64,000 bases of DNA, taken from contig OZ244719.1 of assembly GCA_965219095.1 (NCBI GenBank), positions 160,001 through 224,000 of the forward strand, given 5' to 3'. The notes beneath the pieces are model-generated. The model ran no database searches, was not told where the DNA came from, and saw only the letters and a list, made by a program, of their open reading frames with translations. Every line of letters begins with the position of its first letter. Position 1 is the stretch's first letter. Positions 10,292 to 64,000 of this stretch are shown piece after piece. The DNA is from Bdellovibrionales bacterium (GTDB lineage: Bacteria > Bdellovibrionota > Bdellovibrionia > Bdellovibrionales > UBA1609). The position numbers and the translations under genes are program-made.

Positions 10292-11192
10292 ATCCCCTCC
10301 TATAGTGTATAATATATACACTACTACAGATAGTAGTCAATGGCAAACCCCTTTCTTTTTCAAGAAATCTTGTCTTTTCTCAGAGGCAAAAAGACCGTTT
10401 TAAGATGTTTTAAATGTTAGGATGTTTGTAGTGGATATTTTTTGCCCCGAATTTAGGTCATTTACCTTCGTAAGATTGTCAGTGGGTATGAAGATGTGGT
10501 TAAAAGAGGAGTTCGTGTTAAAAACCAAAGATCAGCTCTGTTTCGAGCTTCCCATCTTGATGCTAAGAAGCAGACTCAATTAAAACGGGCAGAAGAGATA
10601 TATTTGTTCTAGAAGGCTTAGATAAAGCTATCAGTTCTTATGGGGAGGAGAAAGCACGTTATGAAGCAGAGTTTAAGAGGCTAAGTAAAAAACACAAAGA
10701 TATTAGAAATCTTAGTAGCATTCCAGGAATTGGTTCTATCAAGGCTATCAAGATTGTAGCCAGGGTTGTAGTGCCTCACCAATTTAAACGTAATTCCTGG
10801 TGGAGTGGACTGCGGACTTGTAAAGCTACATAAAATGAGCAGTGGAAGGTCTTATGGAACTAAGAAGTCTAGGTTTTGCCCACAAATGAAAAGTGTTTTT
10901 AAGATAGCTGCACTCTCAGTTATAGGAAATAACAATGAATTTAATGATTTTTATGAAGAATTGATCAAAAAAAATTTACCACCACACACTGCTAGAAATG
11001 CTACCAACTAGAAGAATTGCAGCTTTAACTTTAGGTGTTTTCAAGTCTGGGAAAAAATATAAACCTTATGGAGAACGTAAAAATGTAAATAATAATAAAA
11101 CAACCTTATAAAATCATCTGTTTAAAGTTTCTTGCATAGTAAGTAACAATACAAATAATGACTTTATGAGGTGAGGATAGATAGCTTAATTA

Positions 11193-12885
11193 CCTAAATT
11201 CGTGACCAAAAATGTACACTACAAAGCTATAATTTCCCATTTTCCATAAAAATCTCAGTTTTCATAGGGGAATTTTCAATTTTTAGATAAAATCACAAAA
11301 AATAACTTGCCTTGCATTTTCCTTTGTAGTGTAATATATTACACTATATGAGGGAGAAATATGAGCTTTATCAGAAGAATAAAAAGAGGAAAGGTAACAT
11401 ATCTTGCAGAAGTAGAGAACAAAAGGGTTGATGGAAAAGTTATCCAAAAGCATATTCGGTACATCGGGAAGGAAGAGAATGGTGAAACTGTAATTTCAAT
11501 GAGCTCATCTGATCTTGAAATAGAAAAGGTCAAGGTTTATGGTCCTTTGCTTGTTTTAGATAAAATAGCTAGGGAAATAGATTTGCAAAAATCTCTTGGC
11601 CAATACTCCAATGAAATATTAAGCATGGTCTATGCTCACTGTTTAGATTACAAAAGCCTTAGAAAAATGCCAAAATGGTATGAGAGAACAGATTTAAACA
11701 CTTTGCTAAATTTAGAGGATCTAACCGAAAGTCGTTTGCTTTCTGCTCTAGATTCTTTAGAGAGTGATCCAGAAAATTTACAGAAGAAAATATTTCAAGG
11801 TGTTCAGAAAAGGTACAATCTTGAGCTAAAAGGGTTGGTGTACGATGTTACCAATACATACCTTTATGGTAGCAAATGTCAGCTTGGAAAATTAGGAAAG
11901 AGTAAGGATGGGAAACGTGGAAATCCTTTGATTCAAATTGGTTTGGTGACAACTCAAAAAGAAGGAATACCAGTGTTTCATAAAACTTTTAGTGGAAACA
12001 TACACGATAGCAGGACTCTACTAAGTTTATCCGATGGATTTGCAAACTATGGACTAAGTGGAGGAATGTTTGTTTACGACAGAGGCATTTTCTCAGAGAG
12101 AAACCTCAATGAAATCAATGAATTGGGCTGGAATACGCTTTGTGGGATTGCTCTCAGAAAAAAAGAGAAGGATGTGATTAGAAAAATGATAAGGCTAGAC
12201 TCTATTGTTGATGTATCCCATCGCATCAGGTTATCAAGTGGTACCTTGTATGCTCAGAGCATTAATCACAATGTTGGAAAAATCAAAGGACGTTTAGTTG
12301 TTTGTTACAATCAAAGGAGAGCTTTAGATATAAGAGAATCTCGTTTGGACGAAATTGCAAACGCACAAATTCTTTTGTCTAAAAATATAAAACCAGGTTT
12401 GGAAAAATACCTTACTCCAACAGGAAGATTAAGGAGAGATCGGTTGAATTTAGAATCTGAGTTTGATGGTTACTCTTGTATATTTTCTACAAAAAAGATC
12501 TCTGCAAAAGATATTGTTAATTTGTACTATAAGAAAGAGGTAATCGAAAAATTTTTTAGGACCTTAAAGGGAATAACAAATTTGAGACCAATTCGTCATT
12601 GGCTTTACAACAGAGTTCAATCACATGTCTTTATATGCTATTTATCTTGTCTGATACTTTCAATTCTAAAAATGAAGCTTGAAAAGATGCAGATGTCTCC
12701 AGAGGAAGCTCTTGAAGAACTCGGTAGCATGTATAATGTCTATCTTTATGACCGAAAAAATAAAACTAGACTTATCAAAACAGTAGCTTTGAATAAAGTT
12801 CAAGAAAAAATACTAAGATCTATTGGAAAAAGTCTTGTCAAAAAAACGTCCGTCTGTAGTGTACATTTTTGAGCACGAACTTAGG
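11193..12885 (+). mobile_element. IS1634-family element B, apparently intact
   Basis: TIR CCTAAATTCGTG / CACGAACTTAGG; 7-bp TSD TTAATTA; empty site near 63830. Confidence 0.92.
11361..12872 (+). CDS. IS1634-family transposase, 503 aa
   Basis: YDVTNTY, VYDRGI, IEKFFRTLK, LRPIRHWLYNRVQSHVFICYL. Confidence 0.9.
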   Translation: MSFIRRIKRGKVTYLAEVENKRVDGKVIQKHIRYIGKEENGETVISMSSSDLEIEKVKVYGPLLVLDKIAREIDLQKSLGQYSNEILSMVYAHCLDYKSLRKMPKWYERTDLNTLLNLEDLTESRLLSALDSLESDPENLQKKIFQGVQKRYNLELKGLVYDVTNTYLYGSKCQLGKLGKSKDGKRGNPLIQIGLVTTQKEGIPVFHKTFSGNIHDSRTLLSLSDGFANYGLSGGMFVYDRGIFSERNLNEINELGWNTLCGIALRKKEKDVIRKMIRLDSIVDVSHRIRLSSGTLYAQSINHNVGKIKGRLVVCYNQRRALDIRESRLDEIANAQILLSKNIKPGLEKYLTPTGRLRRDRLNLESEFDGYSCIFSTKKISAKDIVNLYYKKEVIEKFFRTLKGITNLRPIRHWLYNRVQSHVFICYLSCLILSILKMKLEKMQMSPEEALEELGSMYNVYLYDRKNKTRLIKTVALNKVQEKILRSIGKSLVKKTSVCSVHF

Positions 12886-13195
12886 TTAATTAGAGTGATA
12901 TTTATAAAAAATTCATTTCGACGAATAGCACATCCTCTATTCCTGAAATTTACTATAATCTAAGGTTTTAAATCTTCGGAATAAATTCATGATTTAAAAC
13001 TAAAAAAGGTTCAGATAGACGCATAATAGGAATATGTTTGTTTTACAATGTGTAAAGGAAGAGTCATTAAAAAATGGAAAGGAAATGCAGGAAGTTTTCT
13101 CTTAGATGATTAGAATATTCGTGACCGTATGCAAAAAAAATTTTTTATATTTTTTGTAAATGGAGAAGTGTTTTTTCTTGACATACTTTTTGATA

Positions 13196-13282
13196 GACAC
13201 TCTAAAAATTTAACAGAGTTTGATTAAAAAGCAAGGAGGCTATGCGTTAAAAGAATGTCGAATTAATTTTTGGAAATGGTAT
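13196..13282 (-). mobile_element. IS630-2 left end up to the start codon (IS110-A insertion site)
   Basis: Reverse complement of 57226-57312 with few changes. Confidence 0.85.
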
Positions 13283-57225: not shown

Positions 57226-58631
57226 ATACCATTTCCAAAAATTAATTCGACATTCTTTTAACGCATAGCGTCCTGGCTTTTTGATCAAACTCTGTTAAAT
57301 TTTTAGAGTGTCGAAAAAAGATTTAGTTACACAGATTCAAGGGTATAATTTTCTAGCTACTTACAAAGTAGAAAGAAGTGCCAACATCAAGATAAAACTC
57401 CAAGCTTTGCAGCATATGCAAGAAGGAAAATCGATTCAAGAAACAGCAAGTATAGTTTTCTATCACAGTCACAGTATCAAATCCTGGTTACAGTCTTTTG
57501 TAGACTTTGATTACGAGGGGTTGATAGATCGAGAAGGCAGAGGGCGCAAGCCTCGTTTACCAGTGACAGAAGAAGAGAACTTCAAAATCAAGTTAGATGA
57601 AATTCAAGACACAAGAGAAGGAGGAAGCATAGGAGCAAAGGGAATACAGGAACTTTTAGCAAATGAATTTGACTGTTGCTATTCTCTTTCTGGGGTTTAT
57701 GCTCTTTTAGACCGTCTTAATATTGTATGGATCAGTGGTCGTTCTCTTCATCCTAAAACTTCACAAGAAGCTATGGAACAGTTTAAGGAACATTTTCCAG
57801 AAGAGGTGGAGAAAATAAAGGAAAAGATTCAGACTCATAAAATAGAGATTTGGTGGCAGGATGAATGCAGAATAGGCCAGCAAGGTTCTTTAAGCAGGAT
57901 TTGGGCAAGAAAAGGCACACGACCTAGAGTTGTGAGACAAAGACAATTTTTATCCACTTATATTTTTGGAGCAGTTTGTCCGGATAAAGATAAAGGCTGT
58001 GCTTGGGTTTTACCGGAATGTAATTCAGGGATGATGCAAATTCACTTAGATGAGATATCTAAAAATATTCAAGAAAACTATCATGGAATTGTTTTAATGG
58101 ACAGAGCCAGTTGGCATACCACAGAGACTTTGATAGTTCCTAAGAATTTATCCCTGATGCCTTTACCTCCTTATAGTCCAGAATTAAATCCCATGGAACA
58201 AGTCTGGCAACAATTACGAAGGATCAAATTATCGAATGCATGTTTTAAAAACTATGACCATATACTGAATACTTGTTGTGAGGCCTGGAATACTTTTTGC
58301 GATCAGGAGGGCAGGATTAAAAAATTATGCACTCGATCTTGGGCAAAACAACAAGATGAATCAAGCTTGTAAATTAATTTGAACCTATAAATTAAATTGC
58401 GTAACTGATTTTTTTCATTTTACATCTTAACCTCACTTTTTTACACTTATTTTAACCCATCAATCGATTCACACAACAATAGATATACATAAAATAAACA
58501 TATCTTATGAAAACTCAACCTCCCTTCAAAAAAAACTTTTTTAAAGCCTCCTAATTGAAACTTTTCCTTAAGTCAATTTTAAAATTTTAAATTTGAACAT
58601 GAAAATGTCGAATTAATTTCTGTAATTGGTA
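57226..58631 (+). mobile_element. IS630-2, complete
   Basis: TIR ATACCATTTCCAAAAATTAATTCGACATT / AATGTCGAATTAATTTCTGTAATTGGTA; TA TSD; removal restores the ISL3 frame. Confidence 0.93.
57308..58372 (+). CDS. IS630-family transposase, 354 aa
   Basis: WQDECRIG, MDRASWH, LPPYSPELNPMEQVW. Confidence 0.93.
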   Translation: MSKKDLVTQIQGYNFLATYKVERSANIKIKLQALQHMQEGKSIQETASIVFYHSHSIKSWLQSFVDFDYEGLIDREGRGRKPRLPVTEEENFKIKLDEIQDTREGGSIGAKGIQELLANEFDCCYSLSGVYALLDRLNIVWISGRSLHPKTSQEAMEQFKEHFPEEVEKIKEKIQTHKIEIWWQDECRIGQQGSLSRIWARKGTRPRVVRQRQFLSTYIFGAVCPDKDKGCAWVLPECNSGMMQIHLDEISKNIQENYHGIVLMDRASWHTTETLIVPKNLSLMPLPPYSPELNPMEQVWQQLRRIKLSNACFKNYDHILNTCCEAWNTFCDQEGRIKKLCTRSWAKQQDESSL

Positions 58632-60201
58632 TAAATCATCACGGGACTTTGAATCCCTTCCTATTTTAAGTTACAGGGTGTTTTTTGTTTATTTTGTAAG
58701 AAGAGTTAATTGTCCTTGCTGTGGGGTAAAAGTTGAGTATTTACCTTGGGCCGATGGTAAGAAGAGTTTAACGATCTTTTACATGAAGTACTTAGCAGAC
58801 TGGTGTCGTCACCTGTCTTGGAAAGAGGTTTCTTGTAAGTTTCATGTCAGTTGGAATCAGGTCTATGCTTCGGTAGAATGGGTCGTAGAATATGGTTTAA
58901 AACAAAGGGTTTTAAAGGGAATACAAGCTATAGGTGTAGATGAAATACAATGGAAAAAGAACCATCAGTATCTCACCTTAGTCTATGAAATAAGCAAAGA
59001 AAGTGTTCGTTTGCTATGGATAGGAGAAAAAAAACAGAAAAGAGTTTTAGAAAATTCTTTGATTTACTAGGAGAGAAGTCAAAAGAGATACGGTTTGTGT
59101 GCTCTGACATGTGGAAGCCTTATTTAAAAGTCATAAAGGAGAGGGCAAGTCAAGCTTTGAATATATTAGATCGGTTTCATATCGTAGCAAGACTCAATAA
59201 GGCTTTAGACGAAGTGAGAGCTTCAAAACACAAAAAAATGAAAGAAGATGGGTATGAACCCCTTTTAAGAAAAGCTAGATGGCCCTTGTTAAAAAATGCA
59301 GAAAATTTAAAATCTTATGAAAAAGTAAAATTAAGGCATTTAATACAGTACAATTTAAAAAGTATCCGCTGTTATCTTTTAAAAGAAGACTTCCGACAGT
59401 TATGGACCTATGTTTCACCAACTTGGGCTGGTAAATTTATAGACAGTTGGACGAGACGAGTCATGCTTTCAAAAATTGAACCTATGAAAAGAGAAGCAAA
59501 AACCATACGAAGACATAAGCTACTTATTCTTAATTACTTCAAGGCTAAAAAAACCTTCTCCTCAGGGATTGTAGAGGGTTTAAACAACAAAGTAAAACTC
59601 ACTATGAGAAAATCTTACGGCTTTAGAACCTCTAAAGCTATAAAAATCGCCTTATATCATAACCTTGGAAAACTGCCAGAACCTCCGGGAACCCACAGAT
59701 TCTTTTGAGGAGGCTTAAAATGAGACCTATCTTTCACCAGATTTCAAGAAGAATAAGAGCCCACATTTTGATCTGCTATCTTTCTTATATTGTCTTAAGG
59801 TATACAGAGCTTTCTTTGAAATCAAAAGGCTTAAATTATGGAGTAGAAACCTTAATTAGAATATTATGTGAGGTGGAAAAGTGGATTCTAAAGAATTCAA
59901 AAACAAAACAAAAATATATGATCTTTAAAGAACTATCGAAAGAGGCTAAGAAAATTTACCAAGCTTTTGATATTCAAAGACAGGAGCTTGCATATCGACT
60001 AGAAAACACCTAAGCTCTTGACTATAGCGAAAAGTGTTGCGTGTCCTGAAAATTAAAAATCTTGTAATATTAGGTGGTTAGAAGTTGCGCACTGCTCCGA
60101 ACCGATAAAGTCAGGATAAAGTCAGGAAAAAATATAAAATGCATTGATTCACTTTTTGATAAACATTTTAAACTCATCAATAATCTTTTTTGTAATTGGT
60201 G

Positions 60202-62048: not shown

Positions 62049-62717
62049 TCACCAAAATAATGTAAAATGACCTTTTAAAACTTTATTGATCTCTTTCTTT
62101 TTAAGAACGAGGTTGTCTCTTGACGAAGGGGCTCTTACCATTTTTAATGAATAAAGTACCCACCTTTTAGGCCAAAAACCATAAAAATTCTTCATGGTCA
62201 AAGTGCTTTGTTCCCCTAACAAAACAGGAACCCTTAGGTCGGCTTTCTTCAACTCCTTTTTATTAGGTAGCAAAACCTCTTTGATCATCTCAGAGTTTCT
62301 ATTGTACTGGCAAGGAATCACAATATGCATTTCCACAGGTGCTCCTGAAACGGAAAGTCCATCTCCATGAAACTTAAGTTTTATGAAGCGATAAAAATCG
62401 CAGGCAAACTCTTTTTTCCCTAAAGCGTTAATTCTTATAAAATGCCCTAAAGCAATGGATTGTTGATCTCCTTTTTGAATCGTTTTAGCTCCCAGCAACA
62501 ATCTTCTGATACTTGCACTCTTAAAATGAACACCCTTAAATTGAGAGATATCTAATTTAGATTCAATGGCCGCAAGCTCACGATGATCTCCTCCCTCTTC
62601 CGAAAAAGGATAAAAAAAGACCTTTCCATCCCAAGAGTTTAAAGTAAAAAATCCCCCTAAAGCCATACCAAGAAGCAAAACACTAAGTGCTAAAAACCCT
62701 CTTTTCATTCCTTTCAT
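62049..62717 (-). CDS. Hypothetical exported/membrane-anchored protein
   Basis: 222-aa ORF with N-terminal hydrophobic helix. Confidence 0.65.
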   Translation of the reverse strand: MKGMKRGFLALSVLLLGMALGGFFTLNSWDGKVFFYPFSEEGGDHRELAAIESKLDISQFKGVHFKSASIRRLLLGAKTIQKGDQQSIALGHFIRINALGKKEFACDFYRFIKLKFHGDGLSVSGAPVEMHIVIPCQYNRNSEMIKEVLLPNKKELKKADLRVPVLLGEQSTLTMKNFYGFWPKRWVLYSLKMVRAPSSRDNLVLKKKEINKVLKGHFTLFW

Positions 62718-62850
62718 CCCTCTTTTTATTCTATAGGATTTCCACCAAAAAAAAAGCCCTACTCGCTAAAAGACTTGTTTAGGGACAGCTTTGTTTCAAG
62801 AGAGAATCTGAACAAAACCCCTAGGAGTACAAAAAAGAAAATAAGGGATA

Positions 62851-62876
62851 ATACCAATTACAGAAATTAATTCGAC
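62851..62876 (-). mobile_element. IS630-2 right TIR stub (IS110-A insertion site)
   Basis: ATACCAATTACAGAAATTAATTCGAC. Confidence 0.8.
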
Positions 62877-63142
62877 GGTAAATCAAAAAGACAGGTCACT
62901 GGTTTAAGCCATGATAGTGACCCTAAAGTACTTGCAGAAGGAGGTGAGCTTTTCGAGACAAATTCTAAACCCTTTAGCTGGCCTGGTTTTTAAGGCCTCA
63001 AAGGGTGTGTTTTCCCTTTTTTTTCGATTAAGCCTGTATTTTTGTGAAGGCTTACTCGAAAAAAAGGAAAAAGCAAAAAAAAGATGTAAAATAGGATTTC
63101 AAGACTTTATTTATAAATAAACCAACAAAGGAGGAAAATAAA

Positions 63143-63754
63143 ATGTATGATCACTATATAGCCGTAGATTGGGCACAAAGTAACATGGCCATTTCAAGGA
63201 TGACAGGCAAATCAAAAGATATTAAGACTATGGACACGATTTCAGATCTTGGGAATCTTCGTGCCTATTTAAAAACTCTGAAAGGTAAGAAGATATTGAC
63301 TATATGAAGCAGAGTTTAAGAGGCTAAGTAAAAAACACAAAGATATTAGCAATCTTAGTAGCATTCCAGGAATTGGTTCTATCAAGGCTATCAAGATTGT
63401 AGCCAGGGTTGTAGTGCCTCACCGATTTAAACGTAATTCCTGGTGGAGTGGACTGCGGACTTGTAAAGCTACATAAAATGAGTAGTGGAAGGTCTTATGG
63501 AACTAAGAAGTCTAGGTTTTGCCCACAAATGAAAAGTGTTTTTAAGATAGCTGCACTCTCAGTTATAGGAAATAACAATGAATTTAATGATTTTTATGAA
63601 GAATTGATCAAAAAAAATTTACCACCACACACTGCTAGAAATGCTACCAACTAGAAGAATTGCAGCTTTAACTTTAGGTGTTTTCAAGTCTGGGAAAAAA
63701 TATAAACCTTATGGAGAACGTAAAAATGTAAATAATAATAAAACAACCTTATAA
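63143..63754 (+). pseudogene. IS110-A transposase with internal deletion and frameshifts
   Basis: MYDHYIAVDWAQSNMAI (DEDD N-terminus) fused at about 63304 to LSSIPGIGSIKA...MSSGRSYG. Confidence 0.85.
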
Positions 63755-63770
63755 AATCATCTGTTTAAAG

Positions 63771-64000
63771 TTTCTTGCATAGTAAGTAACAATACAAATA
63801 ATGACTTTATGAGGTGAGGATAGATAGCTTAAGTAGAGTGATATTTATAAAAAATTCATTTCGACGAATAGCACATCCTCTATTCCTGAAATTTACTATA
63901 ATCTAAGGTTTTAAATCTTTGGAATTCATGATTTAAAACTAAAAAAGGTTCAGATAGACGCATAATAGGAATATGTTTTTTTTACAATGTGTAAAGGAAG
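63771..64000 (+). ncRNA. Putative IS110-A bridge RNA, uninterrupted copy (3' end beyond the window)
   Basis: Target loop 63816-63880 (TAGAGTG, TTTCGAC); donor loop 63881-63973 (ATTTAC, GATAGACG). Confidence 0.75.

Follow-up and report, generated by a model that had tools for sequence, protein, structure and literature searches.

A predicted bridge RNA with readable guides in the right end of a decayed IS1111-type insertion sequence from a Bdellovibrionales genome

The stretch of DNA analysed here, referred to below as the window, comprises the 64,000 bp of C1:160001-224000 in a 3.11-Mb Bdellovibrionales genome (34% G+C, two contigs, C1 and C2). It holds two copies of an insertion sequence of the IS1111 group (IS110 family), one of them (copy 2) running past the right edge of the window and the other (copy 1) split by an unrelated insertion sequence, together with an unoccupied element of the IS630 family that contains both of the target sites described below:

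62877..64000, + strand: copy 2 of the IS1111-type element, with its right end at 64137, 137 bases past the window end
62877..63142, + strand: left-end noncoding region of copy 2, starting with GGTAAATC at 62877
63143..63754, + strand: remnant of the DEDD recombinase gene in copy 2, with an internal deletion and the common frameshifts
10660..11192, + strand: copy 1, recombinase-gene fragment (element positions 427-959 of the copy-2 query)
11193..12881, + strand: unrelated insertion sequence in the target loop of copy 1, with a 503-aa DDE_Tnp_1 transposase and an 11-bp duplication
12882..13198, + strand: 3' part of copy 1, in which the right end, the donor loop (intact) and the target loop's 3' half survive
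57226..58632, - strand: unoccupied IS630-family element with both target sites (1407 bp; DDE_3 and HTH_33 domains)

Positions 63771-64000 make up the first two thirds of the right-end noncoding region of copy 2, and we propose that this region encodes a bridge RNA (seekRNA), a reading to which we assign a probability of about 0.9. Copy 2 is 1261-1263 bp long and lacks 395 bp internally, the full-length copies in the genome being 1593-1654 bp; the stop codon of its last recombinase piece is at 63752-63754, and its right terminus, outside the window, reads ...CTTGACATACTTTTTAATAGAC. Copy 1 has the right end ...TTTTGATAGAC, with its C at 13198 and ACTCTAAAAAT following, and the 5' half of its target-loop closing stem has been destroyed by the other insertion sequence. 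The first-pass annotation had set the junction here at 13195/13196, which holds if GAC is counted as a core, the right-end C itself lying at 13198.

A BLAST search of the genome with copy 2 returned 110 pieces, mainly fragments, and pattern searches located 39 left and 37 right ends. The element has a 9-bp subterminal inverted repeat, ATCAAAAAG (62882-62890 in copy 2) and CTTTTTGAT near the right end, whose two arms in the full-length copy L001 lie 5 nt (left) and 4 nt (right) inside the ends, and whose length falls within the 7-17 bp characteristic of the IS1111 group; by eye, a second subgroup of homologues has ATGAGAAAG at the corresponding places. Of the two noncoding regions, the longer (~383 nt, against 209-266 nt on the left) is that on the right, downstream of the recombinase gene. 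Insertion is site-specific and without target duplication, in that the left flank is followed directly by the right flank at unoccupied sites. Near the end of C2, a 1263-bp stretch (C2:2393405-2394665) is 100% identical to 62877-64137 in window numbering, and both of its flanks are identical too; this duplicate may be either a segmental duplication or an assembly overlap of the two contigs.

The right end contains TTGACA, and joining of the ends would set TAAATC (left-end nt 3-8) 17 nt downstream of it, forming a putative circle-junction promoter with TAAATC as the -10 hexamer; in homologues this hexamer is replaced by TAAAAT or TAAATT. Circle-junction promoters are known in the IS110 family, and ISEc11 reportedly has one, termed Pjunc. 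A promoter and terminator scan of the element gave two sigma-70-like sites, against 5.7 expected by chance, and none was convincing upstream of the RNA. Among listed sequencing runs, the stretch is contained in four DNA runs of a single study and in no RNA run. A scan of 62700-64000 against Rfam 15 at E values up to 10 yielded no match for the two loops described below and only chance-level matches elsewhere (E above 6 within 63771-64000). The weak Rfam matches fell mainly at 63001-63114 (Phe_leader and several microRNA models), on a long A/T-rich hairpin of the left-end leader (63001-63078) that is absent from several other copies (copy-2 query positions 130-186).

The right-end region had been annotated as a pair of adjacent hairpins with internal loops, and a direct reading of the letters found all eight of the motifs named there in place:

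63816..63880, + strand: target-binding loop domain, closed by GAGGAT (63816-63821) and ATCCTC (63875-63880)
63834..63840, + strand: 5' target guide TAGAGTG, the reverse complement of C plus ACTCTA, the right half of site R
63859..63865, + strand: 3' target guide TTTCGAC, equal to the top strand of the left target half up to the junction
63881..63973, + strand: donor-binding loop domain, closed by TATTCCT (63881-63887) and AGGAATA (63967-63973)
63891..63896, + strand: 5' donor guide ATTTAC, the reverse complement of left-end nt 2-7 (GTAAAT)
63953..63960, + strand: 3' donor guide GATAGACG, made up of the final 7 nt of the right end and nt 1 of the left end

In the target loop, a GCU/AGC stem that is invariant (63826-63828 with 63870-63872) lies inside the closing stem, and a small apical hairpin separates the two guides. 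The donor loop has an inner stem, GGTTTTAAATC (63907-63917) with GATTTAAAACT (63931-63941), made of 10 Watson-Crick pairs and one G-U pair, and its two guides, GATAGACG and ATTTAC, match the right end joined to the left end, as had been proposed for the circle junction; in homologues the donor columns ATAG(A/G)CG and AATTTA(C/T) are conserved together with the element ends. In the minimum free energy fold of 63771-64000 as a single sequence, the two closing stems and the inner stem are all present and some guide positions are weakly paired, but the stability of this fold is unexceptional (z = -1.52; 13 of 200 shuffles fold as well).

The sites to which these guides correspond could be located in the genome. 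In what follows, a slash between two flanks marks the insertion junction. Site R, CTTTTTTCGAC/ACTCTAAAAAT, has its junction at 57310/57309, within the GTG start codon of the IS630-family transposase; site L, ATTAATTCGAC/ATTTTCATG (in general form ATTAATTCGAC/ATTTT(T/C)ATG), has its junction at 58607/58606, in the far terminal inverted repeat of the same element. Genome-wide, 26 of the 39 left flanks end in TCGAC (ATTCGAC 20, TTTCGAC 5, TGTCGAC 1), and four are ATATAAC; the 37 right flanks include ACTCTAA (15), ATTTTTA (7), GTCTATT (5) and GCATTAA (3). Allowing up to three mismatches, unoccupied genomic matches number 25 for the site-R pattern and 95 for the site-L pattern, and some of the latter are very small elements that consist of a pair of IS630-type inverted repeats (for example at C2:713476 and C2:471326), from which we conclude that the IS630 family has spawned MITE-like derivatives that carry the target. 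Further flank classes also fall in repeated DNA. The class GGTTAAC/GCATTAAGATG has 10 matches, which include five exact unoccupied copies and one with two mismatches, in repeated elements, and the class CATATAAC/GTCTATTACA has 52, with unoccupied copies in repeated elements among the 12 listed. A third abundant repeat (C1:229754 and ~50 other places) ends in ...GGGTAACTGTCAGATCATATAAC GTCTATTACA, and insertion 10 bp from its end gives the left-flank class ATATAAC and the right-flank class GTCTATT.

Searching the genome with the apical hairpin as an anchor gave 27 places, of which 7 are unrelated and 20 are target loops of the element. The 5' guides in these loops are as follows:

GTAGAGTG: 2 loops (window copy 2 and its identical C2 duplicate), reading site R
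TTAGAGTG: 7 loops, reading site R
ATAAAAATG: 7 loops, reading site L
TAATAGCG, with the 3' guide GTTAAC: 2 loops
Aberrant 5' guide: 2 loops

Both GTAGAGTG and TTAGAGTG are the reverse complement of C plus ACTCTA(A), and ATAAAAATG is that of C plus ATTTTTAT; thus, loops with TAGAGTG or TTAGAGTG read TTTCGAC/ACTCTA, and those with ATAAAAATG read TTCGAC/ATTTTTA. The variants differ by three substitutions within 8 nt, in an RNA region that is otherwise nearly identical (copies ~96-100% identical to the query). For the fourth variant, the predicted site TGTTAAC/GCTATTA had no exact match in the genome and 20 matches with at most two mismatches, none of them in a repeated element among the 12 listed; its 3' guide fits the GGTTAAC class, and its 5' guide fits GCATTAAG or GTCTATTAC only with a one-base shift. 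Two aberrant right-end fragments, C2:1617271 (- strand) and C2:625717 (- strand), have a target-loop 5' side that resembles the element's own ends, with a GGTAAATAG...CTATTTACC hairpin in one and the right end followed by GATTTACT in the other, and could be deletion derivatives or products of end-to-end recombination. We note also that target loops are cut at one common point, just 5' of TTAGAGTG, by the insertion sequence with the 503-aa transposase or by other foreign DNA (window 11193-12881, C1:310542, C2:2072300, C2:1475205 and C1:526963, that is, five of the seven copies with the TTAGAGTG guide); the common point may reflect either a preferred site or a single event that was copied later.

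The broken gene upstream of the RNA region is supported as a DEDD/IS110-family recombinase. The piece L001:468-791 matches PF01548 (DEDD_Tnp_IS110, the N-terminal RuvC-like domain) with an E value of 1.9e-7 and 31.4 bits, above the cut-off of 29. For PF02371 (Transposase_20, the C-terminal domain with the G..SG motif region), another piece reaches 20.4 bits against a cut-off of 21.3, the domain being split by a frameshift. The five frame pieces of the full-length copy L001 tile the entire length of intact relatives of ~334 aa, and their alignment to 334-aa relatives bearing PF02371 includes ...CGLVKLHKMSSGRSYG. The longer recombinase relatives number 432, and the best 120 of these 432 are mainly of ~330-340 aa and mainly carry both PF01548 and PF02371. 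A long open frame is absent from every copy of the element found in the genome, and a census against the intact gene of homologue L004 shows which frame changes the copies hold in common:

Frame change +1 at 188: 17 of 19 copies
Frame change +2 at 497: 13 of 16 copies
Frame change +1 at 708: 14 of 14 copies
Frame change +1 at 909: 17 of 17 copies
Frame change -2 at 1000: 17 of 17 copies
Frame change -1 at 1018: 15 of 15 copies

The statement that the transposase copies are broken is thus true not only of the window but of every genomic copy found. Moreover, a tblastn search of the 3.11-Mb genome with the five recombinase pieces revealed neither a second or divergent family nor an intact IS110-family gene, so that the plan of rebuilding the transposase from an intact genomic copy has nothing to start from here. 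Because identical frameshifts occur in every copy of the recombinase gene, the system is now non-autonomous, and we take the element to have multiplied, or to have been homogenised, after its gene broke.

The same census bears on whether the RNA might still be guiding insertion today, with a recombinase supplied in trans from an unassembled copy or made by frame-restoring translation. Some features of the genome are what such activity would leave behind: many copies are 96-100% identical, the three substitutions per 8-nt guide amid near-identical surroundings resemble recent retargeting, and the first two frameshifts are missing from two of 19 and three of 16 copies. However, the four later frame-breaking changes are present in every copy that could be scored, at least four frameshifts exceed what programmed recoding allows, the tblastn search left no candidate donor of the protein, and the target loop itself is interrupted in most of the TTAGAGTG copies. 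We therefore regard present-day activity as very improbable and treat the window copy as a relic.

The earlier claim that specificity can be read directly holds for the guide variants and the site classes, but not copy by copy: among the 13 copies in which both right flank and guide could be read (by eye), five are cognate, seven non-cognate and one ambiguous. Copy 2 of the window is itself non-cognate, with a site-R guide and a position in site L, its right flank being ATTTTTATG and not ACTCTA. Many copies combine a site-L left flank with a site-R right flank, and the flank types are correspondingly lopsided (site L, ~23 left versus 7 right; site R, ~4 left versus 15 right). A marker, GATTAAAAAG, is present in 11 of 14 occupied site-R right flanks and in none of the 25 unoccupied sites, which together with the common frameshifts suggests that founding insertion took place once or a few times and that later copies arose by secondary spread. 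Many copies probably arose in this secondary manner, either through the spread of a block with IS630-type inverted repeats at its two ends or through copies recombining with one another; in such IS630-bounded blocks the TA duplication is very short and the IS630 termini vary by one base. Because of this spread, the flank counts given above are inflated and do not represent independent RNA-guided events. According to Siddiquee et al. (PMC11187229), a change of target needed changes in both the guide and the donor flank, and by that requirement the non-cognate copies would be poor substrates for their own RNA.

Further evidence on the RNA comes from other genomes. A scan of one genome per species, with 21 intact recombinase relatives as queries, returned 68 loci from Bdellovibrionales, Bacteriovoracaceae, delta-proteobacterial, chlamydial and other uncultured genomes. 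Downstream of the gene, the homologues have a target loop of the form GAGG..AGCTCA-[variable]-hairpin-[variable]-G(A/G)(A/T)TAGC..CCTC and a donor loop of the form TATTCCT..AATTTA(C/T)..stem..ATAG(A/G)CG..AGGAATA, with the right end CTTGACnTACTTTnTnATAG(A/G)C. We built a structural alignment (A3) from the window and those 21 loci, out of 68, whose two loops could both be found with a simple anchor pattern; through this choice (21 of 68 for structure, 20-21 for the guide tests below), elements with divergent loops are under-represented. A hand-written structure of 29 pairs in four helices is paired in 93.2% of the 630 cells of A3, compared with 36-48% for controls in which the 3' partners were slid by 1-3 columns; 24 of the 29 pairs show change on both sides (compensatory change), and the observed values were reached by none of 500 shuffles. 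In A3, the window and L004 rows are two columns out of register at the outer donor stem and were scored as broken there; in sequence, TATTCCT and AGGAATA are perfectly complementary. RNAalifold, left to itself, found the target-loop stems and the inner donor stem, kept the guide columns unpaired, and put a short alternative in place of the outer donor stem. The two-loop layout described for the window is therefore retained in 21 homologues, with the guide columns outside the stems.

Conservation of this kind would also be seen if the two-hairpin region acted as DNA, either as recombinase-binding sites or as a right-end cruciform, with the flank matches reflecting DNA-DNA recognition, given that compensatory changes fit an RNA stem and a DNA hairpin alike. 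Two observations tell against it and leave it, in our judgement, very improbable. The first is an excess on the + strand of G-U and U-G cells (27) over A-C and C-A cells (14, of which the two misaligned rows supply part), which mildly favours an RNA read from that strand. The second is that the corresponding region of related IS1111 elements yields an RNA that was co-purified with the transposase and is required for transposition (PMC11187229).

The variable segments covary with the flanks of the element, which we examined in those homologues whose right end (20) or left end (21) could be read. Between the 5' target guide and the reverse complement of C plus the right flank, 14 of 20 homologues have a match of 7 contiguous nt or more, as do only 1.3% of 380 non-cognate pairings; examples are matches of 11 nt (L026) and 9 nt (L010, L034). 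Likewise, identity of the 3' guide with the left flank, starting at the junction and going inward, extends to 5 nt or more in 12 of 21 homologues (9 nt in L017), and in only 0.7% of 420 non-cognate pairings. The same columns thus track different flanks in different homologues, as a guide/target covariation check of the kind suggested in the first-pass annotation would look for. As regards the six homologues whose 5' guide match is shorter than 7 nt, L032 and L035 are real misses and L022 is weak; L025 and L047, which were counted as misses, are misparses of the search pattern and match over 9 and 8 nt by eye.

We also asked how often such words arise by chance, using 20,000 dinucleotide-preserving shuffles of 63771-64000 and guide words anchored at the junction. 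This anchored design was adopted because an un-anchored longest-match test proved uninformative in AT-rich DNA: matches of 7-8 nt to the AT-rich flanks occurred in 9-63% of shuffles, and the test also caught unrelated matches at 63913 and 63929. With anchoring, TAGAGTG was found in 293 shuffles, TTTCGAC in 144, ATTTAC in 2912 and GATAGACG in 39, so that ATTTAC (15% of shuffles) is weak evidence by itself; at least two anchored words occurred together in 71 shuffles. The idea that the guide-like words are chance matches in AT-rich DNA, which the frequency of un-anchored matches and of ATTTAC might seem to encourage, has next to no prospect of being right and is rejected by the homologue guide-flank test and the anchored shuffles, given that none of the 20,000 shuffles contained more than two of the four anchored words, the guide columns follow differing flanks in homologues, and the variants within this genome match two flank classes.

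The homologues also refine what target and donor have in common. The 5' target segment is complementary to the top strand and the 3' segment to the bottom strand, and the two overlap by exactly one C. A GAC core common to target and donor, as first annotated, applies to the main targets of the element but not in general: by eye, the final C alone is common to left flank and right end in homologues (TAC versus GGC in L010, TGC versus GAC in L034), and some insertions of the element in this genome follow AAC instead. Beyond the guides proper, the three bases past the 3' guide of the target loop equal the left-end bases at positions 2-3 in 21 of 23 homologues, although these bases take only two states (GAT and GGT), so that few independent changes stand behind this count. 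For the donor loop, the three bases past the 3' guide agree at positions 2-3 with the first bases of the right target flank in 10 of 23 homologues, versus 7.9% of 506 non-cognate pairings, and at all three positions in seven of the 11 homologues whose flank begins with G. The window's own element breaks the target-loop form of this rule (GAA versus GGT). We put forward only as a tentative and somewhat doubtful possibility that the genome records ongoing natural retargeting, with three substitutions in an 8-nt guide moving near-identical copies between the start-codon site and the far-repeat site of one IS630-family host, and that the homologues record an undescribed rule of IS1111-type RNAs, by which the 3' guides continue into the product junction. 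If true, such a rule would be the mirror image of the handshake guides of IS621, and would matter for the design of IS1111-type editors.

By analogy with published work on IS621, ISEc11 and related systems, the mechanism that we envisage would run as follows. The right-end region would be transcribed and its RNA bound by the recombinase; in the target loop, the 5' segment would pair with the top strand of the right half and the 3' segment with the bottom strand of the left half, each up to the C before the junction, and the segments of the donor loop would pair likewise with the joined circle ends, ...GATAGAC plus GGTAAATC. The RNA-bound DEDD recombinase would then exchange strands at the junction, inserting the circle, with the guides specifying sites within other insertion sequences of this genome.

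Several features of this scheme can be placed against systems described in 2024. Durrant et al. (PMC11208160) predicted a right-end bridge RNA for 93% of IS1111 elements and displayed target and donor loops for three of them. Siddiquee et al. (PMC11187229) describe IS1111 transposases of 330-350 aa, an RNA demonstrated experimentally for four IS1111 members, and a target-guide arrangement in which the top-strand match lies 5' of the bottom-strand match, the order being reversed in the IS110 type. The likeness that had been drawn to both IS621 and IS1111 therefore stands for the IS1111 side, in the right-end position of the RNA and the order of the guides, and is only loose for IS621, since the strand order of the guides is reversed relative to the IS110 type.

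Within the IS1111 group, the element resembles ISEc11, ISKpn4, ISPa11 and ISPst6 (PMC11187229), with a DEDD recombinase of ~334 aa, a longer noncoding region downstream of it and subterminal inverted repeats. As in seekRNAs of the ISEc11 type, two segments match the two target strands and overlap at the junction, and retargeting takes place through the segments alone. Natural retargeting is described in the same paper between ISEc11 and ISXne4; unlike that case, retargeting here is seen among near-identical copies within one genome and not between insertion sequence species. The element differs further from the named IS1111 elements in having its relatives in Bdellovibrionales, Bacteriovoracaceae and other uncultured lineages, and in that all of its recombinase genes are dead and its RNA is a prediction from sequence. 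With IS621, as described in PMC11208160 and by Hiraizumi et al. 2024 (PMC11208158), it has in common a single RNA with target and donor loops that each read both strands, and a donor that is the circle junction. The handshake guides of IS621 are positions beside the guides that match the non-cognate partner (PMC11208158), and extra positions of this kind are seen here as well. In contrast to IS621, the RNA lies in the right end and not the left, the order of the target guides is reversed, a single common C takes the place of a CT core across the homologues read, and there are long subterminal repeats (9 bp here); the element falls outside the IS621 subgroup. A known IS1111-type element likewise has a specific target in the end of another mobile element, but the host here is of the IS630 family, two of its sites are used, one of which splits the transposase start codon, and at least two more target classes lie in other repeated elements.

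The finding is thus a decayed member of the class described in 2024 by Durrant et al. and Siddiquee et al.; it involves no new mechanism, and the window copy is a relic. What it does show is that raw sequence suffices for reading a bridge or seek RNA together with its specificity. For the organism, the finding accounts for part of the genome's landscape of nested insertion sequences, since the guides directed the element to termini, and to a start codon, within others. For the family, the homologues add a well-populated and previously unnamed IS1111 subgroup from predatory and uncultured bacteria, and their dozens of natural guide-target pairs (loci L004-L071) could be used to test the programming rules of IS1111-type RNAs, namely, guide length, register, the single common C and the product-junction positions.
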